Below, one piece after another: positions 16 through 49,433 of a stretch of DNA of 64,000 nucleotides. The notes under the pieces are model-generated. The model saw only the letters and a list, made by a program, of their open reading frames with translations. It ran no database searches and was not told where the DNA came from. Location of the stretch: assembly GCA_037190825.1 (NCBI GenBank), contig JBBCJS010000003.1, positions 1 to 64,000 on the forward strand. Direction: 5' to 3'. This DNA comes from Chiayiivirga flava. Its GTDB lineage: Bacteria; Pseudomonadota; Gammaproteobacteria; Xanthomonadales; Xanthomonadaceae. Every line of letters starts with the position of its first letter. Positions within the stretch are counted from its first letter, which is position 1. A program made the position numbers and the translations under genes.

Positions 16-2376
16 TCAGTGCCAGTGCGCCGACACTTCGACGCCTGCGAATGAAGCCGACTTCGGCTTCAGCATCAGGTAGTTCCAGCCGCTTGCCGGC
101 TGGGGGACGGTCAGCGCCTCCTCGTTGCCCGGCTGGGTGGAGGAAAGATCGTAGGTGCTGTCGCCGGGCCAGTTTCCGGCACGGTAGTAGAGGTCGCCGT
201 CGCCGCTGCCGCCGCTCATCCGGATCCGCAACTCGGTCACGCCGGCCGGGATGTAGACGCTCAGCCATACCCTGGCCCCGGAGTGGGCCGCGGAGAGGTT
301 GCCGATCTTGCAGTCGTTGTCCAGGCGGCCCTCGGCGGCCAGTGGACATTCGCCGATTTCCGGCGGTTCCTGATCGTCGCCTTCGAAGCCGTCCGCGAAG
401 AGCGGCGCCGGCGGCTGCGGAGTGTCGCCGCCGCAGTTGGCGGTGTTGCCGTTGTTGCCGGCGAAGCACACCAGCCATGCGCGGAACTCGGTGTCGTAAA
501 TGTTGCGCAGGCCGTTCAGCCAGTTGCGGTAGCCGGGGCTGTAGTCGCCCACGCGGGTGAGGGCGAACATCGCCGCGATGTCGTTGCGGTGGCGCTCGAA
601 CATGAAGCGCGATGCCAGGTAGCCCCACTGGTAGATGCGCGAGGTGTCGTGGCTGTAGGTGGTGTCCAGCACCTGCGACAGCGTGTAGCGATCCGGCGCC
701 TGCGCCTGGTTCACGGCGGAGCCGTAGACCAGGTTGCGGTACGAGTAGGACATGTACTCGGCGAAGCCTTCGATGAACCAGATCGATGGCGCGGGAGCTT
801 CCAGCGGCAGGTCCCAGAAGGCGCCGTGCCAGTTGAAGCGGCCGTCCAGGTAGTGGACGTATTCGTGCGTGAGGTTCCAGACCTCGAACTGCGGCCGCAG
901 CCACTCGGCCTCGTAGGCCAGGAAGCGTGCCTGGTTACCGGGCACGGAAGGGTCGCCTTCCAGGTACATCCCGCCGTTGTTGGTGTCGTTGCCGAACAGC
1001 GTGCCCGAGTAGGTTTCGTAGTCGGTGCTGGAGTGGAAGATCACCATTTCCAGGCGGTCGTTGTGATCGTCGGCCACCGGCACGCCGCCGGTCTGGGCCT
1101 GGACGTGGAAGTAGGCTTCCTGTCCGGCCACTTCGGCGCAGACCCAATCCAGCTGCTGCGAAGTCAGCGCCTGGCTGCGCACCTTGAGCGTGGCGCTGCA
1201 CTCGCGTGCGTGTGCGGGCGGCAGCACCTGGGCTTCCAGATCGTCGATGAAGTCGCACAGGCCGAAGTAGGCGCAGTGGTCCATGTCGTAGTACACCACC
1301 ACGCCGGCCATGCGCACGTAGATGCCCGCGCCGGGGCCGCTGATGCCGAACTGGTCGAGGATGCTTTTGACCCTGGGATGCACCACGTTGTGGAAGGTGG
1401 CCGGGTAGCCGTACCACGGGCCGGGATTGAGGAAGCGCGCCAGCTCGCCGGCGGCGTTGTGCAGCATGTACTCGCGGTCGCTGCCGATGTCGGCGGCCTT
1501 GTTGTCGTTGACGAAGGCGACGAGCGAGTCGAGCAGGCCCAGGCCGGGCGACACCTGCACCGCGGCACGGAACTCGTCCAGGTAGTGGCCGCGGAACAGC
1601 ACGGTGAAGGCGTTGTTCACCGCGTTCTTCATGTACCAGTGCGGATGGTGCGAAGGGCCGTAGTTGTCCAGGATCGCGCGAACGGTGCCGATGTGGCCGG
1701 CGTTCTGGCCGGCGCTGTCGATCAGCGTGACGAATTCGGCGAGAACCTCGCCATGGGCTTCGTTGACGTCGCCAAAGCGGGGGCTGGCGACAAAGGCGTC
1801 CAGCGCCGCGCCGATGGCGGTGTTCAGTGCCGTGCCGTAGTCGCCGACTTCAGGGTTGTACCACTGCACGAAATAACCGGCGCGCATGAACATCACCAGT
1901 TGCAGCATGCGGCCGTCGTTGTTGCCCGGATAGCTTGCCGCGTCGGCGTGGATGGCGTTGGCGATGGTGACCATCTTCGACTCGGCGAACACCTGCGCGC
2001 CCACCGCGCCGCCGACGGAGAACAACTGGTTGATGCAGCCGGTCGTGGCGCCCTTCACCGTCGATACCAGCGTCGCGCCGCTGGCGCTGGCGAAGCTGTC
2101 GACGTCGCACCCGCCCTTGGCGCGCGCGGGCATGGGGCGGTCGTAATCGGTACGCAGGTGATCGCGCGTGGCAGGTAGCGGACGGCGCTGGTCGGCCGTC
2201 AACGGGCGTCTCTGGATGTGTTCGGCGATGTGGCCGCCATCGCCGGTGGTGGCCGGCGAGGGCGGCGGCGCGTCTGGCCGGTTGGATGGATGCGCGCTCG
2301 CCGCGGCGATGCCGAGCAAGCCAAGGGCCAGCGCCCGGAGGGCTGGCGTGAGCCGGTTGTTCGAATGCATGGGCAA
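16..2376 (-). CDS. Secreted M9-family metallopeptidase (microbial collagenase-like) with one C-terminal PPC (pre-peptidase C-terminal) domain
   Basis: 786 aa; N-terminal signal peptide (LTPALRALALGLLGIAAASA); zinc motif HEYVHYLDGRFNWHG typical of M9 collagenases; C-terminal PPC-like segment (GDGDLYYRAGNWP...); LFADGFEGDD motif at the catalytic/PPC junction. Confidence 0.8.
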   Translation of the reverse strand: MPMHSNNRLTPALRALALGLLGIAAASAHPSNRPDAPPPSPATTGDGGHIAEHIQRRPLTADQRRPLPATRDHLRTDYDRPMPARAKGGCDVDSFASASGATLVSTVKGATTGCINQLFSVGGAVGAQVFAESKMVTIANAIHADAASYPGNNDGRMLQLVMFMRAGYFVQWYNPEVGDYGTALNTAIGAALDAFVASPRFGDVNEAHGEVLAEFVTLIDSAGQNAGHIGTVRAILDNYGPSHHPHWYMKNAVNNAFTVLFRGHYLDEFRAAVQVSPGLGLLDSLVAFVNDNKAADIGSDREYMLHNAAGELARFLNPGPWYGYPATFHNVVHPRVKSILDQFGISGPGAGIYVRMAGVVVYYDMDHCAYFGLCDFIDDLEAQVLPPAHARECSATLKVRSQALTSQQLDWVCAEVAGQEAYFHVQAQTGGVPVADDHNDRLEMVIFHSSTDYETYSGTLFGNDTNNGGMYLEGDPSVPGNQARFLAYEAEWLRPQFEVWNLTHEYVHYLDGRFNWHGAFWDLPLEAPAPSIWFIEGFAEYMSYSYRNLVYGSAVNQAQAPDRYTLSQVLDTTYSHDTSRIYQWGYLASRFMFERHRNDIAAMFALTRVGDYSPGYRNWLNGLRNIYDTEFRAWLVCFAGNNGNTANCGGDTPQPPAPLFADGFEGDDQEPPEIGECPLAAEGRLDNDCKIGNLSAAHSGARVWLSVYIPAGVTELRIRMSGGSGDGDLYYRAGNWPGDSTYDLSSTQPGNEEALTVPQPASGWNYLMLKPKSASFAGVEVSAHWH

Positions 2377-2615
2377 CCCCTGCCTGTGGTGTTGGAATCA
2401 ACGGATGGAAGGCGCGATCGCGCCATGACGGGCAAGCCCGTCTCCCCTTTCGGCCAATCGCAGGGGCAGGGTGGCAGTGCGGGTATGCGCGGGTCTTGGT
2501 GGATTAGGTCGCGGGCGTGGCGACATTTGCCAAGCGGCGACTTCGTCGTGGGGCAGGCGCCGCCCTGCGCGGCGGAGGCGGCGCGCAGGATGGCGCAGGG
2601 ACGGGATGCGGCGCG

Positions 2616-3908
2616 TCAGGCGTCCCGGGTCTCGCGCGCGATCGCGCGCCAGCCGATGTCGCCGCGATGGAATTCGTTGGCCCAGCCGATCGCGTCCACG
2701 CCGGCGTAGGCATGGCGCTGCGCTTCGGACACCGAATCGCCCAGCGCCGCCACGCACAGCACGCGGCCGCCCGCGGTGACCACGTTGCCGGCGGCGTCGA
2801 ATGCGGTGCCGGCGTGGAATACCTTGGCCGCTGCCGGCACGGCATCCAGCCCGGCGATGACGTCGCCGGTGACCGGCGCATCCGGGTAGGGACGCGAGGC
2901 CATCACCACGCCCAGCGACGGGCGCCGGTCCCATTGCGCTTCCACGGCATCGAGCCGGCCGTCGAGCGCGGCCTCGACCAGGTCCACGAAATCGCTTTGC
3001 AGGCGCAGCATGATCGGCTGGGTCTCCGGATCGCCGAAGCGCACGTTGAACTCGATCACGCGCGGCGCGCCGCCGGCGTCGATCATCAGGCCGGCGTAGA
3101 GGAAGCCGGAGAACGGCATGCCCTCGGCCGCCATGCCGGCGACGGTGGGTTCGATCACCTCGCGCAGGATGCGCGCGTGCACCTCGGGCGTCACCACCGG
3201 CGCGGGGGAATACGCGCCCATGCCGCCGGTGTTGGGGCCGGTGTCGCCGTCGCCGACGCGCTTGTGGTCCTGGCTGGTGGCCATCGGCAGCGCGCTGCGG
3301 CCATCGACCATGGCGATGAAGCTGGCTTCCTCGCCTTCCAGGAACTGCTCGATCACCACGCGCGCGCCGGCCTGGCCGAAAGCGTTGCCGGCGAGCATGT
3401 CGCGCACGGCGGCCTCGGCCTCGGCCAGCGTCGTCGCCACGATCACGCCCTTGCCGGCGGCCCGTCCGTCGGCCTTGACGACGATGGGCGCGCCCTTCTC
3501 GCGGACATAGGCCAGCGCCGCATCCACTTCGGTGTGCACCGCGTAGAACGCCGTCGGAATGCCGTGGCGGGCGAGGAAATCCTTGGCGAACGCCTTGCTG
3601 CCCTCCAACTGCGCGGCCGCCGCGTTCGGGCCGAAGATGCGCAGCCCGGCGGCGCGGAAACGATCCACCACGCCGGCCACCAGCGGCGCTTCCGGCCCGA
3701 CCACGGTGAAGGCGACGGCTTCGCGTTGCGCCAGCGCCAGCAGCGCGTCGATGTCGCTGGCGGCCACCTGCGCATTGCGGCACCTGGCTTCGCGCGCGGT
3801 GCCGGCGTTGCCGGGCGCGACGATCACTTCGGCGACGCGCGGGGACTGGGCGAGCTTCCACGCGAGCGCGTGTTCGCGGCCGCCCGAGCCGATGACGAGG
3901 ATTTTCAT
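2616..3908 (-). CDS. purD: Phosphoribosylamine--glycine ligase
   Basis: 430 aa; MKILVIGSGGREHALAWKLAQS N-terminus and ATP-grasp core are diagnostic of PurD. Confidence 0.95.
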   Translation of the reverse strand: MKILVIGSGGREHALAWKLAQSPRVAEVIVAPGNAGTAREARCRNAQVAASDIDALLALAQREAVAFTVVGPEAPLVAGVVDRFRAAGLRIFGPNAAAAQLEGSKAFAKDFLARHGIPTAFYAVHTEVDAALAYVREKGAPIVVKADGRAAGKGVIVATTLAEAEAAVRDMLAGNAFGQAGARVVIEQFLEGEEASFIAMVDGRSALPMATSQDHKRVGDGDTGPNTGGMGAYSPAPVVTPEVHARILREVIEPTVAGMAAEGMPFSGFLYAGLMIDAGGAPRVIEFNVRFGDPETQPIMLRLQSDFVDLVEAALDGRLDAVEAQWDRRPSLGVVMASRPYPDAPVTGDVIAGLDAVPAAAKVFHAGTAFDAAGNVVTAGGRVLCVAALGDSVSEAQRHAYAGVDAIGWANEFHRGDIGWRAIARETRDA

Positions 3909-3965
3909 GAGGCCGGTTCCCGAGCGCCGTAGCCACGCAGGCAGCGATGCGGGCCGTGGCGAGAA

Positions 3966-4109: not shown

Positions 4110-7100
4110 TCAGTCGCGGGTGATGTAGATGGAGACTCCGCTGAAGCTGGCGCTCTTGGGGCGCAGTCCGATGTAGTACCAGCCGCTGGCGGGCGCGTCG
4201 ATGCTCACGCTTTCCTCGTTGCCGACGTTGTCGGACAGGTGGGCGTAGACCGTGGCGCTCGGCCACACGCCTACCTCGCCGACGTACATGTCGGCATCGC
4301 CCGTCCCGCCGAAGGTATTGATCGTCAGCGAGTTGGCGCCCGCGGGCACATAGGTCAGGAACCAGGTGAACCACGTGGCGTTGGTCTGCTCGGCGCCACT
4401 GCGCTTGCAGCCGGGATCCAGTTGCCGCGCATCGCTCGCGGTGCATTCGGGCAGGTTGGACGGATCGTTCGGTTCCTCCGGTTCTTCCGGCTCCTCGGGC
4501 TCGGTCGTGGGGAAGGTCACGTAGATGCCGACGTCGGTGAAGCTCCCGGACGCCTTGGGCTGGAGCGTGAGGAAGTACCAGCCGGCGGGCGGGTCGGTCA
4601 GCGTGATGGTTTCGCTGTTGCCCGCGTTGGTGGACGCCTCCTCGTATTCGCCCGGCGGGTTGGGATAGGTGCTGCCGCTGCCGTACAGGTCCACGTCGCC
4701 GCTGCCGCCGAACGTCCTGATCACGACCGTCGGCGTGTTGGCGGGAATGTTCAAGAGGGCATAGGCGCGTCCGGTGCCGGACTGGCTCAGTCCGCTGACC
4801 TTGCAGCCTTCGCTGAGGGTGGGCGTGCCGGTCCACGTGCATTCGGGCAGGGTGGACGGATCGCCCGGTTCCACGGGTTCTTCCGGCTCTTCCTCATCCT
4901 CCTCGAAGAACACCACCGCCGTGACGCCGGCGAAGCTGCCGCCGTCCTTGGGGAACAGCGCCACATTGTGATACCCGGCGACGGGCGTGGTGAGGACGAT
5001 GGTTTCGTTGCTGCCGGCATAGGTCGAGGACGCCTCGAACGCGGTGGGCGTCGGGTAGGCCGAGCCGGGCAGGCTGTAGAACATGTCCGCATCGCCCGTG
5101 CCGCCGAAACTGCGGATCGTGGCCTTGGCGGGAATCGCGCCGGCCAGTACCTGGAAGTAGAAGGTCTTGCCGCTGGCGCCGCTCGCGCTCAGGCCGACGA
5201 TCTTGCAGCTCGTGGACAGGATGTAGTCGGTATCGCAGTCGGGCAGGTGGGCCACGTCCGGGATCGGATCGGGGTTCTCGCCCGGCTCCGGCTCCTCCGG
5301 CTCTTCGGGCTCTTCGGGCTCTTCCGGCTCCTCGCCATCGCCGAACGAGGGGTCGATGTCCTCCTGGCCGTCGAGCAGCCAGTAGGCGTAGATGTCCACG
5401 CCGGAGAAATATTCGCCGCCCTTGGCGTGCAGGCCGATGTTGTGCCAGACGTTGCCGGGGTTTTCGATCCGTACCTGCTCGGTATTGCCTGCCTCGGTGG
5501 AGGAATCGGCGCCGGGAGTGCTCGGGTAGGGCCAGGTGGGCGTCTTTGCGACGTACACGTCGACGTCGCCCACGCCGTTGCGGGTCTTGATCCAGAGCGT
5601 CCTGGCACTGGCCGGCGGCAGGATCGAGAGCCACACCACGCCGTTGCCCGAGGCTTGCAGGTTGGCGATCTTGCAGCCGTTGGTCAGGGTGGAAGTGGAA
5701 CCGCACACCGGCAGGTTCACCGGGATGTGCTCCGGTTCCGGCGGCGCCGGCTCGCCTTCGAACTCGTCGTTGAAGATGCGCTCGGCCACGTCCGCGTTGC
5801 AGGGCACGGTGTCGCCGTCGTTGAGCAGGTAGCAGTCCAGCCAGGCGCGGAACTCGCTGTCCTTGCCGTTGCGGATGTTGTCCAGCCAGAGGCGGTAGCC
5901 GGGCGCGTAGTCGCCCACGCGGGTCAGTGCGAACAGCGCATCCATGCTGCTCTTGTAGCGCTCGAACATGAAGCGCGTGGCCAGGTAGCCCCAGACGTAG
6001 ATGTTGTCCTGCGGGCTGACGCCGTACTGGTTGTCGAAGATCGTGGACAAGGGCACGTTGCGGCTGGGCGTGCCGCCGACGTACCAGACGTTGTCGTCGT
6101 TGCGGATGAGGAAGGACAGCGCGATCGCGTCGGCGATCGAGGGGAAGCTCGACGCCGGCAGGTTGCCGAGGAAGTTCTGGGCCATGTACTCGCCGAAACC
6201 CTCGGTGAACCAGACCGCCGAATACGGCGCGGTGCCGGGCAGCGAACTGAAGCCGCCGCGGAAGTTGTAGCGCCCGTCGAGGTAGTGGGTGTACTCGTGA
6301 TGCAGGTTCCACGGCTCCCAGATGCCGCTTCCGACCGGCCGGACCCAGCTGCTCGGTGCGACGAAGGTGATGAAGCGCGGGATGTTGGCGGGGTTGGCGG
6401 GATTGCCTTCCAGGTAGATGCCGCCGTTGTTGGTGGAGTTGCCGAAGAACGTGCCCGAATAGCTGGTGTAGTGGCTCTGGTTCTTGAAGATGATCACTTC
6501 CAGCGTGTCGTTGTGGTCGTCCGGCACGGGCTGGTCCGCCGCGACGCCGACCAGTGCCAGGAAGGCGGTCTTCTGCTGGCCGAGCGATTCGCAGATGTAG
6601 TCCAGCTGCGTGGTGGTCAGGTCGTGGTTGCGGATGCGCAGGTCGTTGCAGACGCGGGTCTGGGACGGAGGCAGGATCTCGTCCTGCAGGTCGGCCATCG
6701 CGGTGCAGACGGCGGGGGAGTAGTAGTTGCAGTTCCCGGCGTCGAAGTAGTTGATCATCTCCGCCAGCTTCAGGAACACGTTGCGCCCGTGGCTGAGGCT
6801 GTACTGGTCGGTGAGGGATTTGACCAGCAGGCGGGTTTCGGCGAGGTACGCCGGCGGATTCTTGATGTCCAGGTAGCGGCCCAGCTCGAAGGCCGAGTTG
6901 ACGATCAGGTACTCGGTGGTGCTGCTGCCGTAGTCGGCGGCGAAGTTGCGCACGACGAAATCGCGCAGCGCCTCGCGGATGCCGTGGTCGTTGGCGGCCA
7001 CGCCGGTATGGTTGGCCGGGACGCTGACCAGGTAGTACGTCAGGTTGAAGACGTAGTTCACCGCCTCGCGCATGTCGCGGTAGGGCGCGTAGTCGGCGCT

Positions 7101-7835
7101 GCTGTAGGCGTTGAGCACCGTGGTCATGGTGTCCAGGTGGGCGGGGATCACGTTCGCCGAGCGCAGCAGGATCAGGAAGTCGCGCAGCGCGTAGCCGTGC
7201 TGGGCCGAGCCGGCCGCCGTGAGGTTGGGGTTGTCGGCGAAGGCGCGCAGCGCGCCGGCCATCGCGGTGCGGAAGGCGCTGGTATCGAAATTCAGCGTGG
7301 TGCGGCCGGTGGCGTAGTAGCCCACGCGCAGGAACATGATCAGCTGCGTGACCTGGGTGCTGTTGTTGCCCGGATAGCCGGGGCTGGCAGCGGCCAGGGC
7401 GTTGGCCACGGCGGTCATCTTGGCTTCGGTGAAGATGGCCAGGTCGAGCGCGCTGCTGGTATTGCTGAAGTTCTCGTTGACGCAGTCCACCGTGGCGGCC
7501 TTGACCACGCTCACGATGGTGGCGGCAGTGGCGTCGGCGAACTGCGCGATGTCGCACACCGCCTTGGGGGCGGCCTTGGTGACGGGGCGGCTGTAGTCGA
7601 TGCGCTGGTAGAGATCGTCGCCGCGCTGGGGCGGGCGCTGTGCCGGGGTCAGCGGTTCACCCTGGACATGCGGGACGCTGACTGCATCGATGCGGTCGTA
7701 CAGCCCGATGTGCTGGATCGCTTCCGGCGGCGTCGGCGCAGGCTGCGGAGCGTGCGCCAGGGCGCCACTGGTCCCCAGCGCCAGCGTCAGCGCGAAACAT
7801 CGCGCCGGGATCGGGATTCGGTAGAAAGAGTTCAT
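4110..7835 (-). CDS. Secreted M9-family collagenase-like metallopeptidase with four tandem C-terminal PPC domains separated by (PEE)n linkers
   Basis: 1241 aa; signal peptide; HEYTHYLDGRYNFRGG zinc motif; paralogue of the 16..2376 product; four PPC-like repeats (GDVDVYVAKTP..., GDADMFYSLPG..., GDVDLYGSGST..., GDADMYVGEVG...) separated by EPEEPEEPEEPE linkers; IFNDEFEGEP motif at the catalytic/PPC junction. Confidence 0.85.
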   Translation of the reverse strand: MNSFYRIPIPARCFALTLALGTSGALAHAPQPAPTPPEAIQHIGLYDRIDAVSVPHVQGEPLTPAQRPPQRGDDLYQRIDYSRPVTKAAPKAVCDIAQFADATAATIVSVVKAATVDCVNENFSNTSSALDLAIFTEAKMTAVANALAAASPGYPGNNSTQVTQLIMFLRVGYYATGRTTLNFDTSAFRTAMAGALRAFADNPNLTAAGSAQHGYALRDFLILLRSANVIPAHLDTMTTVLNAYSSADYAPYRDMREAVNYVFNLTYYLVSVPANHTGVAANDHGIREALRDFVVRNFAADYGSSTTEYLIVNSAFELGRYLDIKNPPAYLAETRLLVKSLTDQYSLSHGRNVFLKLAEMINYFDAGNCNYYSPAVCTAMADLQDEILPPSQTRVCNDLRIRNHDLTTTQLDYICESLGQQKTAFLALVGVAADQPVPDDHNDTLEVIIFKNQSHYTSYSGTFFGNSTNNGGIYLEGNPANPANIPRFITFVAPSSWVRPVGSGIWEPWNLHHEYTHYLDGRYNFRGGFSSLPGTAPYSAVWFTEGFGEYMAQNFLGNLPASSFPSIADAIALSFLIRNDDNVWYVGGTPSRNVPLSTIFDNQYGVSPQDNIYVWGYLATRFMFERYKSSMDALFALTRVGDYAPGYRLWLDNIRNGKDSEFRAWLDCYLLNDGDTVPCNADVAERIFNDEFEGEPAPPEPEHIPVNLPVCGSTSTLTNGCKIANLQASGNGVVWLSILPPASARTLWIKTRNGVGDVDVYVAKTPTWPYPSTPGADSSTEAGNTEQVRIENPGNVWHNIGLHAKGGEYFSGVDIYAYWLLDGQEDIDPSFGDGEEPEEPEEPEEPEEPEPGENPDPIPDVAHLPDCDTDYILSTSCKIVGLSASGASGKTFYFQVLAGAIPAKATIRSFGGTGDADMFYSLPGSAYPTPTAFEASSTYAGSNETIVLTTPVAGYHNVALFPKDGGSFAGVTAVVFFEEDEEEPEEPVEPGDPSTLPECTWTGTPTLSEGCKVSGLSQSGTGRAYALLNIPANTPTVVIRTFGGSGDVDLYGSGSTYPNPPGEYEEASTNAGNSETITLTDPPAGWYFLTLQPKASGSFTDVGIYVTFPTTEPEEPEEPEEPNDPSNLPECTASDARQLDPGCKRSGAEQTNATWFTWFLTYVPAGANSLTINTFGGTGDADMYVGEVGVWPSATVYAHLSDNVGNEESVSIDAPASGWYYIGLRPKSASFSGVSIYITRD
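5280..5340. repeat. Tandem 9-nt (ggctcttcg-like) repeats encoding the (PEE)n linker; shorter copies near 4480-4510 and 4870-4900
   Basis: Direct tandem repetition visible in the DNA (ccggctccggctcctccggctcttcgggctcttcgggctcttccggctcctc); encodes EPEEPEEPEEPEEPE. Confidence 0.6.
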
Positions 7836-9910: not shown

Positions 9911-9918
9911 CGCAGGCG

Positions 9919-11224: not shown

Positions 11225-11262
11225 CCCCCCGGCGTCATCCCGGCGAACGCCGGGATCCAGTG
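11225..11262. repeat. REP-like hairpin (gtcatcccggcgaacgccgggatcc)
   Basis: Perfect 8-bp stem tcccggcg/cgccggga in the intergenic gap between the epimerase start and the giant-gene stop; same family as the 'PAFAGxx'-translating repeats elsewhere in the window. Confidence 0.5.
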
Positions 11263-11280: not shown

Positions 11281-14200
11281 TCATGACGAGGCACCCTTTG
11301 GCTTGCGGGGTTCCTTGCTGCGCGTATTCGCCGGCGAGTCGGATGGCGTGGCCGCCGGCCCCATCCGCCGTGCGATCTCGCGCAGGATCACCTGCAAGGC
11401 GTCGTGCTGGTCGGCGCGCTTGTGCATGCCGTCCACCAGCGGCTTGAAGCCCAGTTCCAGCGCGTTGCGCAGGCCGCCGAGCCACATCGCCGCATCGGTG
11501 CTGGTATCGCGGGAGAAGGTGCGGGCGAGTGCCTGCTCGCTGGCGATGCGTTCGAGCAGATCGATCAGGGCGGGCCAGTGCGTTGCTTCGTCCGCCGTTG
11601 CCGATGCGGGTGCGGCATCGGGCGAAGGCAGGCCGCGCTCGAGCGCGCGCACGCCGGCCACGAGGTCATGCAACTGCGCGACCACGCGCGTGCCCACGTC
11701 GGCATCGGCGCCGCCGATGGACTTGTTGCGGCGGAAGTCGGCCTTGATCTGTTCCCAGCGCGCGGCTTCGTCGTCGGTGAGCGTGCCGCGCAGTTCGGCC
11801 AGCTTGAGCAGGTTTTCTTCCGCGCCGGTGGTGAGCAGTTGCGATTCGCCGAGGTAGTGGTCGGCGATGAGCTGCTGCAATTCGGCCTCGTTCATCACCG
11901 CCGACACCTTTTCCGCCAGCTTGTTCATGTTGCGGTAGCTGCCTTGCAGGCGGAACGGCGGCTCGGTGCGGTAGGCGTCGGCCTGCGCGGCGCTGGCGAT
12001 GTATTGCTGGTTGACGCGGTAGACGATCTCGCGCACCGCGATCAGGCGCGCGAGGGTGCCGACGATCTCGTTGATCTCCGCGCCGCTGTAGTCGTGCCTG
12101 AGCGCGTTGGTGGAGACCTCGCGGCCCTGCGCCTTGTCCACCAGCAGGTAGAGATCGGCCATGTCGCGCGTGGCCAGCGGCGCGAGCACGGGGTTGGAGG
12201 TGAGGCTGTTCTCGATGTAGCTGAGCTTGAAGGAATCCTCCATGCCGCCGAGCACGTCGCCGAGGTTGTAGATGTCGGCACGGTTGGCGAGCATGTCGGG
12301 AATCCTGAACACCTCGCCGGACTCGGTATACGGATTGCCGGCCATGACCACGCAGAACTTCTTGCCGCGCATGTCGTAGGTCTTGGTGCGGCCGTTCCAC
12401 ACGCCCTCGATGCGGCGCGTGCCGTCGCACAGGGAGATGAACTTCTGCAGGAACTCCGGGTGCGTGTGCTGGATGTCGTCCACGTACAGCATCACGTTGC
12501 TGCCCATTTCCAGCGCGAGGTTGAGCTTCACCAGTTCCTGCCGCGCGGTGGCGTCGGGCGCCTGTGCCGGATCGAGCGAGCGCACCTCGTGGCCGAGCGC
12601 CGGGCCGTTGATCTTCATGAAGATCAGGCCCAGCCGGTTGGCCACGTATTCCATCAGCGTGGTCTTTCCGTAGCCGGGCGGGGAAATCATCATCAGCAGG
12701 CCCATCAGGTCGCTGCGCTTGTTTTCGCCCGCGGTGCCCATCTGCTTGGCGAGGTTGTCGCCGATCAGCGGCAGGTAGACGTCGTTGATGAGCCTGTTGC
12801 GCACGAACGAGGCCAGCGGGCGCGGCTTGAATTCCTCCAGCCGCAGCGCCTCGCGCTCCCGCACGAGCGCGTCGTGGCGCAGGCGTTGGAAATCCTGGAA
12901 ACCGGAAAGCCAGACGCGGCGGTGATCGGCCAGGCGCTGCATCAGGTCGAACAGGCGCAGGTTCAATGCGCCATCGACGATGCGCGGGTGTTCGCTCAAC
13001 AGGCCGTGTACGGATACGTCCAGATCGGCCTGCGAAACCCGGTGCGGCAGCGTTGGGCCGAGCAGCAGCAACGCAGCGGCCTCGGGAACGTAGGCTTTGA
13101 GCGATGCAAGTTCTGCCCGCGCGGAATCTTCCGTATTGCCCACGCCGTCGTTCCCGCGAAGGCGGGAACCCAGTGCCTTTGCGCCATCATTCGAAAAAGT
13201 CGCCGGGCTCCCGCCTTCGCGGGAGCGACGACGATCTTCGGCATCGTCCACCAGCGCGCGCAGCCACTGGCGCAGCAGGGCGTGGCGGGCGCCGTTGCCG
13301 TCCAGCGCTTCGAGCGTAGTGCTGAGTGTGTCCCAGCGCGGGCCGTCGAGTGTTGATTTCAGTGCGGTGGCCAGTTGCTGGGCGTAGCGGCTGAAGGCGA
13401 ACTGAGGATGTGGGGCGGAGAGTTCCTGTGCCAGATAGGCGGCTGCAGACGAAGCGAGTGCGGCATCGAAGGGTAGGGCGTGGTGCGCGGCCTGTGCGGC
13501 GATGACATCAGCGATGTTCTTGCGTAGCGTGGCGAGTGCGGCATCGTCATCGAACAACTCACGGATTTGCGCGGCATTGCGTGCCTGCGCCGGCCAGCGC
13601 GTGGCCTCGGGCGAATCGGCGAGCGCATCCCAGCACAACAAGGCCAGCGCGCGTGCTTCGGGTGAGTGAACCAGCGAACCGGCCGCATCGCGCAGCGGCG
13701 TCACCGCGCGCAGGATCAGCGCGGCATCGTGGTCGTGGATGCCTTTCTCGTAGCCTTCGCGGTAGCGCGGCGTGGCGAAGTCGCGCACCGCGCGGGCCAG
13801 TGCGTCCGGTTCCAGCGCCAGTTGCGCGAGGCGTTCGCGGGTGAAGCCTTCGGTGCTGCGGTCGGCGGCATCGAGCACGAGGCCGGCGAGGTATTCGGCG
13901 CGGGAAAGCTCGGGCGATTCGGATTCCAGCGCGGCCTGCCAGTACGGGCGCAGCGGCTCCAGCGCCGGGTCATTGAGTTGCGCGAAGTAATCGGTGCCGG
14001 TGAGATGCAGCGCCAGGCCATCGCCACGCGGAAGAATGGTCAGATCCAGTTCCTGCGTGTTGACCGAGAAGCGGTGACGCCCGAGGCGGATCAGGTTGCC
14101 GCCTTCCTCGAACAGTTCGCTCTTGTCGCGCAGCGCGCGCACGGCCTGGTCGCGCACGCCCTTGAGGCGCGCCTCCACGTCGTCGGCCTTGACGCTGTCC

Positions 14201-16695: not shown

Positions 16696-16737
16696 GGGGC
16701 TTATGAAATTGGAAGTTTTGGGTGTGCTGATGGATCG

Positions 16738-17532: not shown

Positions 17533-17681
17533 GGGAATCGTCTCGATCTGGTTCGGGGGGCGGCATAGGTCAGGGTGAGCGGAGTGAATTCCGGCGCTGT
17601 GGACTGTGGTGAATCAGAAGCGCCCCTCATCCGCCCTCCGGGCACCTTCTCCCCGCACGCGGGGAGAAGGGGAGGGAGAGG

Positions 17682-19670: not shown

Positions 19671-19737
19671 GAGTGACTCCAGAGGTTGGCCGGGACGTGC
19701 CGGGTGGAACGAGAAAGAAGATGGGTTGAAAGCGGGG

Positions 19738-30507: not shown

Positions 30508-30572
30508 ACCTCGAAAAACCTCCGTCATCCCCGCCTTCGCGGGAATGACGAGCAAAAGCAGGTTTTTCGAGG
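30508..30572. repeat. Nested-hairpin REP-like element (~65 nt)
   Basis: cctcgaaaaacct-ccgtcatccccgc-cttc-gcgggaatgacg-agcaaaagc-aggtttttcgagg: the outer 13-nt arms are exact reverse complements and the inner 11-nt stem is nearly perfect. Confidence 0.7.
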
Positions 30573-36388: not shown

Positions 36389-36411
36389 TCGCCGTCGGCG
36401 GGCCGGCATCG

Positions 36412-37284: not shown

Positions 37285-37595
37285 ATGATCCCCTTGTGCA
37301 GCGTACGCAACCGGCAGGCGGAAGGCGAGGTCGGCAATCTTTTGCTGCCGCTGTGGGCCTGTCAATAGAAGGCGCTCGTCGCCAGAGCGACGCCGTTCTT
37401 CCGGAGTGTCCTTAGGTCACGGCGCCGCATGGGCCTTCCGCAGAGCCATGCGAACATCTCCAAGGCGACTCCCCCCATGTGTGCCGTGTTCACGGCCGAC
37501 TTCGCTCTCTTCGCCAGGATGGAGCAGGGGATGGACATCAGCGCCAGGTGCATGAGCCGCGCGGGCCGGCCGGTCGCGTACCCGGCGCCGCTGGG

Positions 37596-42712: not shown

Positions 42713-44752
42713 TTGCGGGTGGGACAGGACAATCTGGCCGGTTATGCATTCGATGGTTATTTCCTGGACTTGCGCTCACGCCAGGTTGTGGGACCAGAGG
42801 GTGCATCGCTGACGTTGACAACCAAGGCGTTCGATACGCTGCTTTATCTGATCACGCGTCCAGGCGAAGTGGTTGGCAAGGAAGAGTTGCTGAAAGCTGT
42901 CTGGCCGGGGCGAGTGGTGGAAGACAACAACCTCACCCAGGCCATCTCGGCGCTGCGCCGGGCACTGGGCGTTGACGGCGGCGATCGACGGTACATCCTG
43001 ACTGTTTCCGGGCGCGGCTATCGCTTCGTTGCACCCGTGCGCAAGGTTTACCTGGAGGGTGGGGCACTTCCGGGCGGGGCAGATGCCGATGGCCAGGCCG
43101 TGACGGAGGAAATTGCACCTGCGCTGCCCGCGGCGGGGGCGCCTGGCCTCACGCTCGATCGGCTCGATAGACCAGCCAAGACCGTCAATCAGCGCTTTTC
43201 GCGCCAACGCGCAGCGAGCGCCCTGGCGTGGACCACGCTCGGCGCACTGTTGCTGGGCGCATTCACGTGGATGGGATACCGTGGATCGACCGCGCCCTTG
43301 GATATATCGGTCGCGCCCTTGTCACCCGAACCGGTTCCGGCAGCGCAGGCGTTGCCGGCCATCGCGGTGTTGCCGTTCCACATGCTGGGTAAGGCAGACT
43401 CCGATTCCATGATCGAAATCGGCCTGGCGGAAACGTTGATCGCGCGCCTGTCAGAGTCGCACCAATTGCATGTGCGCGCGATCGGCTCTGTCCTTCGCCA
43501 GGTCGAAGATACGCGCGATCCGGCCAATGTCGCCGAGGCGCTGGACGCGCAGTACGTCCTCAGTGGATCGGTGCAGGCGCGGCAGGACCGTGTGCGTGTC
43601 GTTGCGCAACTTTTTTCACGATCGCGCGATGCCGTGATATGGGGCGATACCTTCGATGCGCATGTCGATGCCGTGTTCACTTTGCAGGACGCCATAGCGC
43701 ACGCGGTATTGCAATCGTTGTCGATGACGTTGCCCGCGGGATCCGCATCGCACCGCAGTCCCTGCGATGGTGCCGACCCGATGGCGTATCGCGACTATCT
43801 GGCGGGGCAGCACCTGATGAGCGCGCCGATTCCCGATCGGCTGACGCGAGCCATAGGCGCATTTCGTGCCGCACTTGAACGCGATCCGACCTGTGCACGT
43901 GCCTGGGCCGGACAGGCATTTGCCTGGCGGGCCATGACCATTACGGGGGACATGGCGCCGCACGATGCCTTCCCGCTGGCCGAGGCTGCCGTCGCGCATG
44001 CGCTCGCATTGGATCCGGAACTGGCAGAAGCCCATGCCGCACGGGGTTTCAACCGATTCTGGTACGACTGGGACTGGGCTCAGGCCGAACAGGCCACGCG
44101 TCAGGCAATGGCTGCAGGTCCCAGTTGCGTGGATGCGCATTTTGCTCACGCCCATCTGATGAGCAACCTTGGACGTACAGCGGAAGCGTTGCAGGCAATG
44201 GAAATCGTGCGGCAACTGGATCCACTCTCCCCGCTGATCAACGCCATCCATGGGCAGATATTGGCGGCCGCGGGTGAGGAAGAAGCCGCTGCGCATCAGA
44301 TCGACATCACGCTGCGACTCGCCCCGGATTTCTGGATTGGCCTCTTGATGCGCGGCAGTCTGGCCTTGCAGCAGGGCGACACCCAGGGGGCGATTGTCGA
44401 TCTGGAAAACGCTGCAGAGCGTTCCCAGCGTGCCAGTCTGGTTCTGGCAACGCTGGGTATGGCGTACGCCCGCAACGGACAGCCCGAGCGGGCCCAGACG
44501 CTGCTGGATGAATTGGAACTGCGTTCAAACCATGGCTATGTCCCGCCGACGAGTCTGGCTGCGATCCATTTGGCGTTAGGCCGCACCGAGCAGGCACTTC
44601 AGCTGCTGGAAGACGCGTACCAGGCACGTGACCTGCGCATGACATTCCTCCGCGTGGACATGCGCTGGAACCCAATCCGAAGGGAGCCGCGCTTCATCGC
44701 GTTGGGGCAGCAGATGGGGTTAACACAAACGGAACCCGCGACAGGACTTTGA
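42713..44752 (+). CDS. CadC-like winged-helix (OmpR/PhoB-type) transcriptional regulator with a TM segment and C-terminal TPR repeats
   Basis: N-terminal YAFDGYFLDLRSRQV...GRGYRF DNA-binding domain; a hydrophobic segment near residue 165; TPR-like C-terminus; the track start at 42713 is TTG (GTG at 42719 is an alternative). Confidence 0.8.
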   Translation: MRVGQDNLAGYAFDGYFLDLRSRQVVGPEGASLTLTTKAFDTLLYLITRPGEVVGKEELLKAVWPGRVVEDNNLTQAISALRRALGVDGGDRRYILTVSGRGYRFVAPVRKVYLEGGALPGGADADGQAVTEEIAPALPAAGAPGLTLDRLDRPAKTVNQRFSRQRAASALAWTTLGALLLGAFTWMGYRGSTAPLDISVAPLSPEPVPAAQALPAIAVLPFHMLGKADSDSMIEIGLAETLIARLSESHQLHVRAIGSVLRQVEDTRDPANVAEALDAQYVLSGSVQARQDRVRVVAQLFSRSRDAVIWGDTFDAHVDAVFTLQDAIAHAVLQSLSMTLPAGSASHRSPCDGADPMAYRDYLAGQHLMSAPIPDRLTRAIGAFRAALERDPTCARAWAGQAFAWRAMTITGDMAPHDAFPLAEAAVAHALALDPELAEAHAARGFNRFWYDWDWAQAEQATRQAMAAGPSCVDAHFAHAHLMSNLGRTAEALQAMEIVRQLDPLSPLINAIHGQILAAAGEEEAAAHQIDITLRLAPDFWIGLLMRGSLALQQGDTQGAIVDLENAAERSQRASLVLATLGMAYARNGQPERAQTLLDELELRSNHGYVPPTSLAAIHLALGRTEQALQLLEDAYQARDLRMTFLRVDMRWNPIRREPRFIALGQQMGLTQTEPATGL

Positions 44753-45590: not shown

Positions 45591-47090
45591 TCATTCGAAT
45601 CCGTCGGCGAAGAGGTCTTCGCTTGCAGGTTGCAAGCCGAGCAGACCTCCCATGTGCCAGCCTTCGAGCGCGAAGGGGTAGAGGGAGTTGTCGTAATAAC
45701 GATGCAGCCCACCCACCACGATCCGGTTTGGGCCCATGTCTAGCAGGTCGTGCATCGAAAGATACGCATGATCGAGGCTGATTCTTTGTAATCCCAGCGC
45801 CGCACCGGACGTTGCGTCTACCATTCCCAGAAGTCCATCAAATGCTGGGCTTGTGGGATCTTTCAGATAGCCTGCCAGCCCGATTCTGCCGCCTTCCAGA
45901 AGTTTCATGCGATGTACGTGAGATGCCGGCAAGCTTCCAAAATACTGATTGCACGGCAGGCGAAGCCCGCCGAGCACCGCCGTGCCCGTGTCCCCGAAGC
46001 TTGTGATCCTGTTGCCGCTGGCGTCCAGCTTCAGCACGCCAATGCCGGGCCGGCACGTCCGCTCCACCTCGCCAGCGAGGTAGACGACATGGGTGGCCGT
46101 GCCCGTGGTCGAGAAGGTGGGTGTGACCTGGATCTGGGTGGCCTGTGCCGAGCGCCACTGGCCGTCCTCGAAGATGGCGAAGGTCTTTGTTCCGTATGAG
46201 GAACCGGGTGTGCCGCCCATGTCGTCTATCTTGGTGAGCGCATATTCCCACTTGTTTACCAATGGATTCAAACTCGCGCCGGCCAGATAGAAACTGGTCG
46301 GGGAAATGGCGGACGAGCTGGGGACTTGTGCGATAGCCGCCACGGTGCAGGAAGAAACACAGTCGCCCACCTCCACAGCTCCTGTATCGGGCGTCAGTGT
46401 GCCAGATGGGTCCACGGTATAACGACGGAAAATCGGCACGTAACGGCCATCCGCTTCCTGCCGCATGCCGGCAACAGCGACCTTAAACGCCGCTGCATTC
46501 TCGTAATACACAAGCCCTCCGCCAAATTCCTTCCTGTTGGTCGTGAAAACATTGGTTCGCGACAGGAATCGCCCTTCCATGCTGAATGCCAGTACCGCGA
46601 CATCGATGTCGCCGCTGGAGTATTGCTCCTCGAACTGTATGAAAATCTTGGATTGCGATATTGTCGCGTCGATGACATTGCGTACGCGCGCCACCGATGA
46701 CCTCGGGTAGGTAATGTAGTGGTGTTCCGGGATGCTTCCGGAGTGGCTGTATTCGGGGCTTGGGTCGGGCCATTGCAACTGTTGGCCATTCTGCGTGTAG
46801 CGGCTCAGGGAAATATTCCAGAAACCGTTGCTTTGAAGTTGTGGCTGCGGGGGGTTTGCCACGCCAATCGCGACCAAATCGCCATTGGGTAGCGTCAGCA
46901 GGCGGCGTATGAATGCGCCCTGTCCATTGGGGTTGAGCGTAGGATAGGCGCTGCCGAAATTTTCCACCAGGTCGACCCCGTAATTAAAGGATGGGTCGGG
47001 CTGGTACGGTCCGCTGGTGATTTGCGATGCATGCAATGGGTTGAATGCCATGAATGGCAAGAAAAACAGGGGTGCGAGGTGGCGAATCAT
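45591..47090 (-). CDS. Secreted hypothetical beta-rich protein (low-GC) ending in ...DLFADGFE
   Basis: 499 aa; signal peptide MIRHLAPLFFLPFMAFNPLHASQ; about 55% GC; no recognisable catalytic motif; stop falls immediately after DGFE. Confidence 0.7.
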   Translation of the reverse strand: MIRHLAPLFFLPFMAFNPLHASQITSGPYQPDPSFNYGVDLVENFGSAYPTLNPNGQGAFIRRLLTLPNGDLVAIGVANPPQPQLQSNGFWNISLSRYTQNGQQLQWPDPSPEYSHSGSIPEHHYITYPRSSVARVRNVIDATISQSKIFIQFEEQYSSGDIDVAVLAFSMEGRFLSRTNVFTTNRKEFGGGLVYYENAAAFKVAVAGMRQEADGRYVPIFRRYTVDPSGTLTPDTGAVEVGDCVSSCTVAAIAQVPSSSAISPTSFYLAGASLNPLVNKWEYALTKIDDMGGTPGSSYGTKTFAIFEDGQWRSAQATQIQVTPTFSTTGTATHVVYLAGEVERTCRPGIGVLKLDASGNRITSFGDTGTAVLGGLRLPCNQYFGSLPASHVHRMKLLEGGRIGLAGYLKDPTSPAFDGLLGMVDATSGAALGLQRISLDHAYLSMHDLLDMGPNRIVVGGLHRYYDNSLYPFALEGWHMGGLLGLQPASEDLFADGFE

Positions 47091-47528: not shown

Positions 47529-49031
47529 TCAGGGCTCGAAACTGTCGGAGAAGATATGGATGGGAATGCTGAACACGTAGGCCGCGCCTGCACCATTGCG
47601 GCTGTTATTGTCGGGGCCGCTTCCGTCACTGGCCTCCAGCGGAGCGGAGATCGAGATGTCATGATCAGCGATGGCAACTGAGTCACCGAAGCGGTCGCCG
47701 GGTCCTGCATTGATTGCTTTCAGATAAGTCTGATCACTCCAGCTACCGTCCCTGCGCCAGAAGGCATAGACGGCACCGGCGTCGGTGGCGGCGTTGTTGC
47801 CTGGGTTGCTGCCGTTGCCATCCTCTCCGGGGGCGCCGACAACGATCCGGTTGCCCCATATCGCCACGGAGTGCCCGAACAGATCATCGGAGGCTGCGTT
47901 TTCCGCCTTCAGGAAATCCGTCCAGTACCACGTTCCATTGCTTTCCCGCGTGTACACATAGGCCGCACCGGCATCGGAGGCGTCGTTGTTTCCTCCGTGG
48001 CTGCCGTTACTGTCTTCGTAAGGCGCACCAATCACCAGCGTATCGTTGAAAATGGCCACGCTGCTGCCGAAATTATCGCCGGAATCGGCGTTGATGGCTT
48101 TCAGGCGCGTTTGTTCGATCCAGACGTCACCATTGCGAACGAACACATAGGCAGCGCCGGAATCGGGCACACTGTTATCGGAGGCGCTGCCCCACGCGCT
48201 ACCGTCTTCGCCATGCGCACCGATCACGGCAACATCACCCGAAAGAGCCACGGAATAACCAAATCGATCCGATTCGCCGCCGTTGCTCGCCAACAGGCGC
48301 GCCTGCTGTTCCCATTCGTGACCTTGGCGAACGAAGACATAGGCAGCGCCAGTGGTGCCGGCGCCGTCCCTGTGCTCCGCAGAGGCGCCGACCAGAATTG
48401 TGTCTCCGCAAATCGCCACCGAGTCGCCGAAGATTGAGAAACTGCCCAGTGTGGTTTGCCTGCTCAGGTAAGCCTGCTGCTGCCAGTGTGTTCCAGCGCG
48501 TGTGAAAACATAGGCGGCACCTCCCGCCGCGTTGGCCGCTACGTCGTTATGATATGGCGCGCCGACGACGATGGTGTCCCCTGAAATTGCGACCGAATGA
48601 CCGAATCTGTCACCGCTCTTGCTGTTTCCGCCTTTGAGAAAGGCCTGTTGCGTCCAGTGATCGCCACTGCGTGTGAATACATATACGGCACCGGAGTTGG
48701 GTCGGCTGTTGTCCCCAGGGCCATTGCCGTTGCTGTCTTCGGAAGGCGCTCCGATCACCACGGTATCTCCGGATATAGCGATGGAATGGCCGAATCGATC
48801 GTCCATGTCTGCAACGTTGGCTTTCAGGTAGGCCTGCTGGGTGATCCAGGTCGTCGGGAAAATAGGGGCGTCCTGCCATCGGACGCTCCTCCAGTTGGCG
48901 ACGGACAATGCCGATGCCGGTTCGGGCACATGAACGTTGTTTGGGTCGAACGCAATGCGCTGCTTTGCGATCAGCGATGAGGATTGCAGGCCGCCCACTA
49001 ACAGAAGTGCCAGTGACGCCAACAGCGACAT
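47529..49031 (-). CDS. Secreted FG-GAP-repeat (integrin-alpha-like beta-propeller) protein ending in ...IFSDSFEP
   Basis: Roughly seven repeats of DRFGhSVAIsGDTiVVGAP ... GAAYVF (FG-GAP); probable start at the MSLLASLALLLVGGLQSSS signal peptide (~49031, +/-2 nt); lower GC. Confidence 0.7.
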   Translation of the reverse strand: MSLLASLALLLVGGLQSSSLIAKQRIAFDPNNVHVPEPASALSVANWRSVRWQDAPIFPTTWITQQAYLKANVADMDDRFGHSIAISGDTVVIGAPSEDSNGNGPGDNSRPNSGAVYVFTRSGDHWTQQAFLKGGNSKSGDRFGHSVAISGDTIVVGAPYHNDVAANAAGGAAYVFTRAGTHWQQQAYLSRQTTLGSFSIFGDSVAICGDTILVGASAEHRDGAGTTGAAYVFVRQGHEWEQQARLLASNGGESDRFGYSVALSGDVAVIGAHGEDGSAWGSASDNSVPDSGAAYVFVRNGDVWIEQTRLKAINADSGDNFGSSVAIFNDTLVIGAPYEDSNGSHGGNNDASDAGAAYVYTRESNGTWYWTDFLKAENAASDDLFGHSVAIWGNRIVVGAPGEDGNGSNPGNNAATDAGAVYAFWRRDGSWSDQTYLKAINAGPGDRFGDSVAIADHDISISAPLEASDGSGPDNNSRNGAGAAYVFSIPIHIFSDSFEP

Positions 49032-49433
49032 GCGCGCACGAATCGGCAGGGTGGGTGCTATCGCTATCGAGGTGAACTGCGTGGTCAGGAGCATATGCAT
49101 CCAGTCCGTTACCGGCTTGCCATCACGCAGCACGGAATTTTTCATGAGAGCTCTCCCGATGTAGTGGCATTGACGTCGATGCACGGTGCTTGTGCCGTGG
49201 CGTGGATACCATGGTCGTGACGGTGCCCAGGCAAGGATGAGTCGTGTCATCCAAGGGGCCTGATGTGGCATGGCCAACTGTCAGACATGACCGTGCTCAC
49301 ACTCGGGGGTGGGGCGGTGAAATGTCATAGGTTTCGAATGAAAAATTGTGAAATCCAATGAAAGCGCATGCGACGGTGTTGCGATGCGTCTGGATCATGG
49401 CCTGCTACGATCCAGCCGTGGACGATTTAGTGG

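Follow-up and report, generated by a model that had tools for sequence, protein, structure and literature searches.

A short C-terminal tail without a membrane anchor recurs on exported proteins of Chiayiivirga flava and related Lysobacterales and is a candidate sorting tag

Seven copies of one motif in a 64-kb window

We analyzed a 64-kb stretch of Chiayiivirga flava DNA (contig JBBCJS010000003.1; "the window" denotes all 64,000 nucleotides) in which two collagenases and five further exported proteins share a short motif, hFxD(G/E/S)FE (h, hydrophobic), located either at the extreme C-terminus or, in the collagenases, between the catalytic module and the PPC tail. A six-frame search of the window with the regular expression [LIVMF]F.D[GES]FE returned exactly seven matches, every one of them on the minus strand within a long open reading frame (ORF) with high G+C at third codon positions (Table 1). 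These are the seven sites that a first-pass annotation of the DNA had picked out, and each lies in a real gene. A relaxed expression yielded no additional C-terminal copies of the motif in the window.

Apart from its shortness, nothing favors the view that the motif arose by chance or from the base composition of a high-GC genome. Fifty codon-block shuffles of the window gave a mean of 0.02 matches and a maximum of 1, as against the seven observed. In addition, the copies spell the same residues with different codons (GGC/GGT/GGG/GGA, GAC/GAT, and GAA/GAG), indicating that conservation operates at the protein level and ruling out a DNA repeat as the source of the motif. The shuffles and control scans refute a chance origin, and the terminal placement, taxonomic concentration, and signal-peptide link described below all oppose it as well; we therefore give this explanation practically no credence.

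Table 1. Motif sites, labeled by motif sequence and carrier gene, and other features of the window.
Feature	Positions	Strand	Context
LFADGFE, collagenase 1 (gene 16-2370)	382-402	-	internal, 121 aa upstream of stop; Pro-rich linker GGDTPQPPAP before, GDDQEPPEIGEC and one PPC (about 70-267) after
IFNDEFE, collagenase 2 (gene 4110-7835)	5757-5777	-	internal, 548 aa upstream of stop; GEPAPPEPE after, then four tandem PPC-like segments (about 4113-5756)
LFSDGFE, g25757 (gene 25757-26683)	25796-25816	-	12 aa upstream of stop, extension PASGMTRPPRPR
VFEDGFE, g29629 (gene 29629-30378)	29632-29652	-	followed directly by TGA
MFDDGFE, g30583 (gene 30583-32262)	30586-30606	-	followed directly by TAG
LFADGFE, g45591 (gene 45591-47090)	45594-45614	-	followed directly by TGA
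IFSDSFE, g47529 (gene 47529-49031)	47535-47555	-	followed by Pro, then TGA
CadC-like regulator gene	42713-44752	+	convergent with g45591 and g47529
Lower-GC segment	42713-49277		GC 0.58-0.64 vs about 0.68
REP-like palindrome	11234-11253		at or between gene ends
REP-like palindrome	20475-20500		at or between gene ends
REP-like palindrome	25660-25685		at or between gene ends
REP-like palindrome	30524-30549		at or between gene ends
REP-like match, 2 mismatches	13147-13166		inside the 11281-16695 gene
HNH-type endonuclease gene	35192-36388	+	N-terminal ~110 aa matched
Membrane protein gene	36412-37365	-	adjoins HNH-type gene
ATPase and two membrane-associated proteins	11281-20349	-	1804, 662, and 203 aa
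PIN-domain gene	20505-20957

All seven window carriers have a plausible signal peptide. Apart from the two paralogous collagenases, they show no mutual BLAST similarity beyond the tail itself (E > 0.5). In Pfam, both collagenases match M9_N, M9, and PPC and g47529 matches FG-GAP_2 seven times, while the remaining four carriers (g25757, g29629, g30583, and g45591) have no match. The g29629 product is a 249-aa exported protein; g30583 is a remote relative of alpha/beta hydrolases with an additional beta-rich region at its C-terminus; g45591 shows a weak match to delta-60 repeats. Other exported proteins of the window, namely a VIT-domain protein and an esterase resembling polyhydroxybutyrate depolymerases, lack the motif, indicating that it marks a subset of the exported proteins. 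As first described, no hydrophobic anchor follows the motif: in the terminal copies the stop codon comes directly or within a few residues.

Distribution, conservation, and anatomy of the tail

To survey other genomes, we used a DNA pattern for hFxDGFE followed by TAA or TGA and scanned one genome per species (GTDB, 185,579 species). At least 121 matches were obtained, at least 93 of which end ORFs of 120 aa or more. Among the matches listed, 88 of the 93 in long ORFs carry Lysobacterales-lineage or generic proteobacterial labels, including Lysobacterales, Lysobacteraceae, Rhodanobacteraceae, Dokdonella, Aquimonas, Chiayiivirga, Rudaea, Tahibacter, Pseudofulvimonas, Denitratimonas, Ahniellaceae, Wenzhouxiangellaceae, Marinicella, and generic proteobacterial metagenome-assembled genomes (MAGs). 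A further 22 fall in short ORFs, nearly all from unrelated taxa, and represent chance background. Within this set of matches, the motif is concentrated in one branch of the Lysobacterales comprising Dokdonella, Aquimonas, Chiayiivirga, Tahibacter, Rudaea, Ahniellaceae, Wenzhouxiangellaceae, and Marinicella. Two contigs from MAGs labeled Patescibacteria/Saccharimonadia (L121, DATMVT010000327.1, and L176, DATLNY010000221.1) also encode tail-bearing proteins; at 66-70% GC, they are probably mis-binned Lysobacterales DNA. The same pattern with a stop codon matched IMG/VR only three times, in ORFs of 33-108 aa and none of 120 aa or more, and when the stop was omitted, 3 of 45 long-ORF matches in viral contigs lay within three residues of a stop.

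Placement within the protein is equally restricted. When the relaxed motif was sought in the Lysobacterales loci that we fetched, 80 of 92 matches abutted the stop codon, 7 lay within 3 aa and 4 within 20 aa of it, and the sole internal match lay more than 60 aa away. Hence 87 of 92 copies in related genomes end within 3 aa of the protein terminus, which argues against the random placement that the first-pass annotation had named as a potential refutation. Eleven of the 12 non-abutting matches are no more than 11 aa from the stop, and short extensions of 1-11 aa past the motif account for 11 non-ascertained cases in related genomes. Among about 411 ORFs unselected by the scan, 16 (3.9%) carry the tail, which suggests on the order of a hundred tails per genome, a figure inflated by tandem paralogues. 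Several MAGs contributed multiple loci (e.g., JBGAPI01, JANMSL01, and JAKJFE01). One 1188-aa protein (L145, protein end at 3798-3820) ends in a tandem double tail, FFADGFEGSDDLFSDGFE-stop.

The terminal position is retained among homologues. Five g30583 orthologues (P0001-P0005, 62-97% identity) end in IFDDGFE, IFANGFE, IFADGFDG, ILQDGFE, and IFADGFE, while two distant homologues, P0007 and P0008, lack both the final ~130 aa and the tail. A choice-of-anchor Q beta-helix family seeded from Chiayiivirga flava comprises 120 homologues at 36-100% identity, of which 88 have the strict motif within six residues of the terminus and most others have degenerate ends such as LFADDFEP or IFANGFQ; the tail begins 4-8 residues after the choice-of-anchor Q domain. 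A phmmer search with g29629 recovered 36 relatives, 9 of which end in the tail or a degenerate form (IFADGFQ, IFGNGFE, IFAGGFE, and others); elsewhere, members of this domain family have no tail, a GFE tail, or a different short tail. Because g30583 orthologues, beta-helix proteins down to 36% identity, and g29629 homologues all share the end, the terminal copies are not recent truncations; truncation would have undermined the initial proposal. The gene context is less stable: one g30583 orthologue, on a 41-kb contig, sits in a different, housekeeping context, indicating that there is no conserved operon.

We next consider the collagenases, in which the motif is internal. Both are M9 peptidases, matching PF08453 and PF01752 with E-values of 3e-31 to 6e-103, with PPC downstream of this module, and the motif lies at the catalytic/PPC junction of each, as had been proposed. 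Among named proteins, M9 peptidases of Chiayiivirga, Dokdonella, and Tahibacter come closest to collagenase 1 (61-64% identity). In collagenase 1, the motif occupies residues 659-665 and the PPC profile match begins at residue 704. The PPC-like segments of collagenase 2 are separated by acidic, Glu/Pro-rich linkers of the (PEE)n type. Pfam reports three PPC stretches in this protein, and BLAST against the single PPC of collagenase 1 places copies at residues 873-971, 992-1104, and 1123-1236; the copy right after the motif is visible only in the full-length alignment and in the sequence itself. Relatives of collagenase 2 carry one PPC domain, or a PKD domain plus PPC, compared with four segments here.

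Collagenases of the clade have the motif, or a degenerate form of it (IFADDFD), in the linker that joins the Cys-rich end of the catalytic module to PPC, which starts with "PEC". In about 36 of them the motif stands exactly between the two modules, and the next residue is mostly Gly, Ala, Thr, or Ser. In collagenases of Frateuria, Dyella, Myxococcus, and Pyxidicoccus, a Pro-rich linker leads directly to PPC and the motif is absent. Conversely, eight PPC-less relatives (P0177, P0182, P0189, P0191, P0193, P0196, P0240, and P0242) end 0-8 residues past the motif or its degenerate form, and P0164, which has BACON and InlB-B-repeat domains, lacks the motif at the junction and ends in IFSDGFE. Four architectures thus exist: core-motif-stop, core-motif-PPC, core-PPC without the motif (outside the clade), and core-BACON-repeats-motif-stop. 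Since the motif varies separately from PPC, it is a modular element independent of that domain. PPC (PF04151) shares with the motif a C-terminal place on secreted peptidases and directly follows it in both window collagenases, but the motif lies outside the PPC profile behind a variable linker, is absent from PPC-bearing collagenases outside the clade, and is present in proteins without PPC. The motif is therefore not simply the first strand of PPC, which had been flagged as a trivial explanation.

The collagenase arrangement bears on an alternative in which the motif marks a module boundary or a site of proteolytic maturation: a protease in the envelope or outside the cell would recognize hFxDGFE and cut beside it to remove C-terminal extensions such as PPC, and the terminal copies would be remnants left after the extension was lost from the gene. 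PPC is described in Pfam as a pre-peptidase domain removed after secretion, and both the exact position of the motif between catalytic module and PPC in the ~36 clade collagenases and the tolerance of 1-12 aa extensions past it are consistent with this idea. Yet the 80 of 92 copies that abut the stop leave nothing to remove, and a cleavage site without a leaving group offers no explanation for terminal copies that are kept down to 36% identity. In P0164, moreover, the large accessory domains precede the motif, and the PPC-type domains of clostridial collagenases are retained, collagen-binding modules. We consequently regard a maturation site as unlikely.

We then asked what kinds of protein carry the tail. 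By a crude heuristic, 49 of 70 tail ORFs have a signal peptide compared with 156 of 600 control ORFs (P = 7e-13), in agreement with the enrichment that had been anticipated; most of the heuristic "negatives" have a signal peptide by eye, and two have Tat signals. The 62 tail-ending proteins from other genomes match 61 Pfam families, with folds that include beta-helices, FG-GAP and delta-60 propellers, reprolysin-like peptidases, and Ig-like domains; among proteins of other genomes, four with FG-GAP_2 repeats bear the tail at their end. Matches to NCBIfam extend the list to M36 peptidases, multicopper oxidases, a GH44 glycosidase, and MauG-like enzymes. Many carriers fall into NCBIfam families whose hallmark is a C-terminal sorting signal that varies between members, namely choice_anch_Q (eight proteins), choice_anch_D (two), choice_anch_B (one), and rhombotarget A (two), as well as two myxosortase- or rhombosortase-dependent M36 peptidases, one of which also matches the T9SS-dependent M36 model (T9SS, type IX secretion system). 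The tail thus occupies the place where homologues elsewhere carry PEP-CTERM, GlyGly-CTERM, MYXO-CTERM, or T9SS sorting domains. The 118 aa upstream of the tail fall into 54 clusters among 67 proteins, indicating that there is no hidden shared domain; a common C-terminal domain is ruled out on this basis. Together with the lack of BLAST similarity among the window carriers, these data bear out the notion of a portable element on unrelated folds.

Alignment of 82 terminal examples extends the consensus to D-x-[LIV]-F-x-[DN]-G-F-[ED]-COOH. Asp stands in 43 of the 82 tails at position -9, on which the scan placed no constraint. Asp is enriched 2.7-fold over positions -16 to -8, and Lys, Arg, and His are depleted 2.5- to 4-fold. 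In a 107-sequence alignment of the beta-helix family, F505, G508, and F509 are at least 90% conserved and rank among the most conserved columns. The AlphaFold2 model built from this alignment for P0009, a Chiayiivirga beta-helix protein, has a mean predicted local distance difference test score (pLDDT) of 93.2 and a predicted template modeling score of 0.90, and the only segment with pLDDT below 50 is residues 502-510, which is the tail. In this model, the tail is conserved yet not packed against its carrier, as is typical of short linear motifs that a partner molecule recognizes. A model of g30583 from eight sequences was poor (mean pLDDT 39.5) and lends weak support to disorder of the tail.

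An alternative account of this conservation holds that the tail is a relic or a passive cap, derived from the first strand of a lost jelly-roll-type domain (FxDGFESGxLxxW), whose acidic aromatic end would guard against tail-specific proteases with no dedicated partner. Longer versions of the tail do occur (IFSDGFEDGTTSEWSRTTP-stop in L033, TDGFETGDLTGWDLHNP-stop in P0258, and IFNDGFENQTTNNWSAVAN-stop in P0259), the same words open larger proteins in viral contigs (L117 and L034), and the long form gives a weak match (E = 0.16, P0258 only) to the start of the NTTRR-F1 model, at positions 5-23 of 155. Against this, near-invariance of the two Phe, the Gly, and the Asp, together with Asp at -9, across hundreds of carriers exceeds what protection from exoproteolysis would need; independent truncation at the identical residue in dozens of families is implausible; and the tail is inserted into the collagenase linker where relatives outside the clade have no such domain. 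We judge a relic or cap to be quite improbable. As for the window copies themselves, an NTTRR-F1-like N-terminal jelly-roll strand was rejected since the terminal copies end at, or no more than 12 aa past, GFE.

FxDGF words also occur at the other end of proteins. A phage family of ~340 aa opens with M-A-[LV]-[LIV]-F-[IVMC]-D-G-F-D-H-Y (e.g., L006, L012, L017, L058, L060, L077, L114, and L116), and the viral proteins of L117 and L034 open with the longer form FxDGFESGxxSxW.

A putative sorting tag read after export

To place the tail among known signals, we compared it with the eight attributes of small prokaryotic C-terminal sorting domains set out by Haft (bioRxiv 10.1101/2023.06.07.544157, section 5). 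It displays six of the eight (attributes 1, 2, 3, 6, 7, and 8). Copies lie at the C-terminus (attribute 1; five of seven in the window at or within 12 aa of the stop, and 87 of 92 within 3 aa elsewhere), occur several times per genome (attribute 2; five terminal and two internal copies in 64 kb), and conserve F, D/N, G, F, and E/D (attribute 3). Most carriers have an N-terminal signal peptide (attribute 6; 7 of 7 in the window and 49 of 70 by the heuristic), and pairs of carriers share the signal alone, as judged from the window, Pfam, and upstream-cluster data (attribute 7). Homologues without the signal exist (attribute 8), namely P0007, P0008, and the collagenases outside the clade, which have no tail, and the g29629 family, with members that are tail-less or end in a PVELQ-type tail described below. 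The remaining two attributes are absent: the stop codon comes directly or within a few residues in place of a hydrophobic transmembrane segment (attribute 4), and the tail ends in Glu or Asp, with Lys, Arg, and His depleted around it, in place of a terminal basic cluster (attribute 5). Without a transmembrane helix or a basic cluster, an intramembrane sortase-like enzyme is excluded, implying a soluble or outer-membrane reader.

The closest parallels are the tripartite systems LPXTG/sortase, PEP-CTERM/exosortase, GlyGly-CTERM/rhombosortase, and MYXO-CTERM/myxosortase. As in these, the tail stands at the extreme C-terminus, many times per genome, with few near-invariant residues, on signal-peptide-bearing carriers that are otherwise unrelated and whose homologues elsewhere are tail-less or have another signal; unlike in these, there is no transmembrane helix or Arg/Lys cluster, and the protein simply ends. 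The T9SS C-terminal domain (Por_Secre_tail, Bacteroidota) is likewise a C-terminal tag on diverse Sec-exported enzymes and adhesins, and one tail-bearing M36 peptidase matches a T9SS-dependent model, but that domain is folded and about 70-100 aa long, whereas the common part of the GFE tail is about nine residues; with nothing shared upstream of the tail, a T9SS domain is ruled out. The outer-membrane-protein beta-signal and the YxF-COOH end sensed by the DegS PDZ domain are also short, aromatic-containing C-terminal peptides, and the tail, too, would be read in the periplasm. The beta-signal, however, has an aromatic last residue and forms the last strand of a beta-barrel, and it is ruled out here because the GFE tail ends in Glu or Asp on soluble folds such as peptidases, hydrolases, beta-helices, and propellers. 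A type I secretion signal is ruled out because the carriers have Sec or Tat signal peptides. KDEL/HDEL and the PTS1 signal -SKL (read by the tetratricopeptide repeats (TPRs) of Pex5) resemble the tail in logic only, being short, unstructured C-termini on unrelated cargo without an anchor, and differ in domain of life, compartment, and sequence. Tail peptides had no match in NCBIfam even at E <= 10, and a literature search (motif strings, Dokdonella sorting signals, and Wenzhouxiangella) found no description of the tail, consistent with the claim that it was previously unrecognized.

Taken together, these observations lead us to propose that the motif is a lineage-specific short linear motif acting as a putative anchor-less sorting tag read after export, a reading that we believe stands about an even chance of being correct. 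The first-pass annotation had suggested a secretion, processing, or sorting tag; the portable, terminal, anchor-less, and export-linked character of the element has held up, and from it we infer the sorting role. In our proposal, the last folded domain of a Sec- or Tat-exported protein would be followed by a short tether, acidic and poor in basic residues, that bears the tail. Once the carrier reached the periplasm, an envelope component would read the tail in trans and route the protein further, through the outer membrane or to the cell surface. This logic would be akin to that of receptor-read C-terminal signals (KDEL and PTS1) and not to membrane-embedded, sortase-type cleavage. In the collagenases, the tag would mark the end of the enzyme module, with PPC appended after it and perhaps either removed or used for collagen binding.

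Several observations weigh against a sorting tag. Neither the window nor the neighbor clusters of 96 loci revealed a recognizing protein, a sortase-like enzyme, or a dedicated secretion gene. Neighbor clustering at these loci, aimed at a sortase-, protease-, or secretin-like partner, returned only extracytoplasmic function (ECF) sigma factors, Ser/Thr kinases with TPRs, and unrelated enzymes, and one apparent neighbor "family" proved to be antisense shadow ORFs of the Ser/Thr kinase. The transmembrane helix and basic cluster that define all known prokaryotic small sorting domains are both absent. The motif is internal in both window collagenases, so a free alpha-carboxylate would be no absolute requirement unless the PPC domains are cleaved off. 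Some carriers belong to usually periplasmic families (multicopper oxidases and MauG-like heme enzymes), meaning that a purely extracellular destination is not certain. Finally, Xanthomonas, Stenotrophomonas, and Lysobacter are judged to lack the tail on the basis of a sample, namely the matches listed from the genome scan.

The regulators found near tail genes raise another explanation, namely that the tail is a periplasmic ligand for the TPR domains of transmembrane regulators (ECF sigma factor plus Ser/Thr kinase, or CadC-like). In that role, the tail would signal how many or which proteins have been exported, in a DegS-like manner, instead of sorting them. TPR domains are classic readers of C-terminal peptides (Hop/EEVD and Pex5/SKL), and DegS senses the C-termini of outer-membrane proteins. 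A bitopic Ser/Thr kinase with one transmembrane helix after the kinase domain is present in 15 of the 96 loci and adjoins the tail gene in about 9-11 of the 96, often with an ECF sigma factor of PF07638; in the one member scanned, TPRs lie C-terminal to the helix and are predicted to be periplasmic. In the window, the CadC-like regulator adjoins both g45591 and g47529 and combines a winged helix-turn-helix, a probable transmembrane segment, and TPRs. Most tail genes, on the other hand, have no such neighbor, and enrichment of the kinase beside tails is not established relative to its background density in these genomes. Adjacency fits equally well with regulators that simply control neighboring genes for exported proteins, and tails on choice-of-anchor families are left unexplained. 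We hold this explanation to be very improbable.

If the sorting-tag proposal is correct, several consequences follow. Outside T9SS and sortase-like systems, little is understood about how folded periplasmic proteins are selected for transfer to the outer membrane or the surface, and to our knowledge no linear signal for type II secretion has been described. A nine-residue, anchor-less tail on roughly a hundred exported proteins per genome would offer a mutable handle on post-export selection. It would also provide a simple rule for predicting the exoproteomes of common soil, wastewater, and saline Lysobacterales (Dokdonella, Aquimonas, Chiayiivirga, Tahibacter, and Wenzhouxiangella), as well as a minimal tag with which to secrete proteins or display them on the surface.

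The g29629 family points to a second tail. Homologues from Acidobacteriota (Thermoanaerobaculia) MAGs end in PVELQ(R/K)hxxE in place of the GFE tail. A scan of metagenomes for PVELQxFxxE followed by a stop gave at least 126 matches, at least 104 of which end ORFs of 120 aa or more, with the consensus [VIL]PVELQ[ST]Fx[VI]E-COOH; this tail is represented by loci L244-L363 (metagenome contigs) and proteins P0251-P0255, P0267, and P0278. Among the matches listed, position -2, which was not selected, is Val or Ile in 100 of 104 long ORFs, position -11 holds a hydrophobic residue in 94 of 104, the carriers group into 52 sequence clusters, and 75 of 85 complete ORFs look signal-peptide-bearing. In metagenomes this tail is about as common as the GFE tail; its named carriers, on g29629 homologues, are Acidobacteriota, and it also ends many unlabeled metagenomic ORFs. 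The literature search and NCBIfam returned no match for this tail. The presence of two different anchor-less tails on one domain family suggests a wider, undescribed class, and the PVELQSF tail suggests that the phenomenon extends beyond one clade. We tentatively propose, as a possible though doubtful generalization, that the GFE tail is one member of an unrecognized class of anchor-less C-terminal tags in two-membrane bacteria, with PVELQ as the second, and that such a strand-like tail could insert, by donor-strand complementation, into a domain left incomplete in an envelope receptor or in a secretion-system component. The GFE tail resembles the first strand of a beta-sandwich or jelly-roll domain, and the PVELQ tail is one that we take to resemble such a strand as well. 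Donor-strand docking, if true, would make these tails the first linear recognition signal for a post-Sec export step in such bacteria.

Neighboring genes and other features of the window

Cassettes of an ECF sigma factor (PF07638) and a ~900-1000-aa Ser/Thr kinase lie beside, and sometimes sandwich, tail genes at L129, L138, L154, L167, L171, L175, L177, L179, L233, and other loci. The CadC-like regulator of the window has a winged helix-turn-helix, a probable transmembrane segment near residues 176-198, and TPRs. It lies in a segment of lower GC that also contains g45591 and g47529 and may be an acquired island.

Four copies of a repetitive extragenic palindromic (REP)-like element with a consensus of about GTCATCCCCGCGAAGGCGGGGATGAC were located, two of them just downstream of tail-bearing genes. 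The pattern matches eight times compared with 0.39 expected, and one further site matches with two mismatches inside a gene (Table 1). Read in frame, the element gives "IPAKAGMT" or "IPAFAGMT", peptides of spurious ORF extensions.

A PADLOC scan of the window neighbors returned nothing bearing on the motif. It matched the N-terminal ~110 aa of one product to HNH-type endonuclease effectors (PDC-M68A, SAVED-HNH; E down to 1e-21). The adjoining gene encodes a membrane protein without a family match, and the two (35192-37365) may form a small defense locus between mutS and the downstream genes. Elsewhere in the window, a 1804-aa ATPase with DUF3686, DUF7902, and AAA_5 domains is followed by 662-aa and 203-aa membrane-associated proteins without family matches, and a PIN-domain gene is also present.

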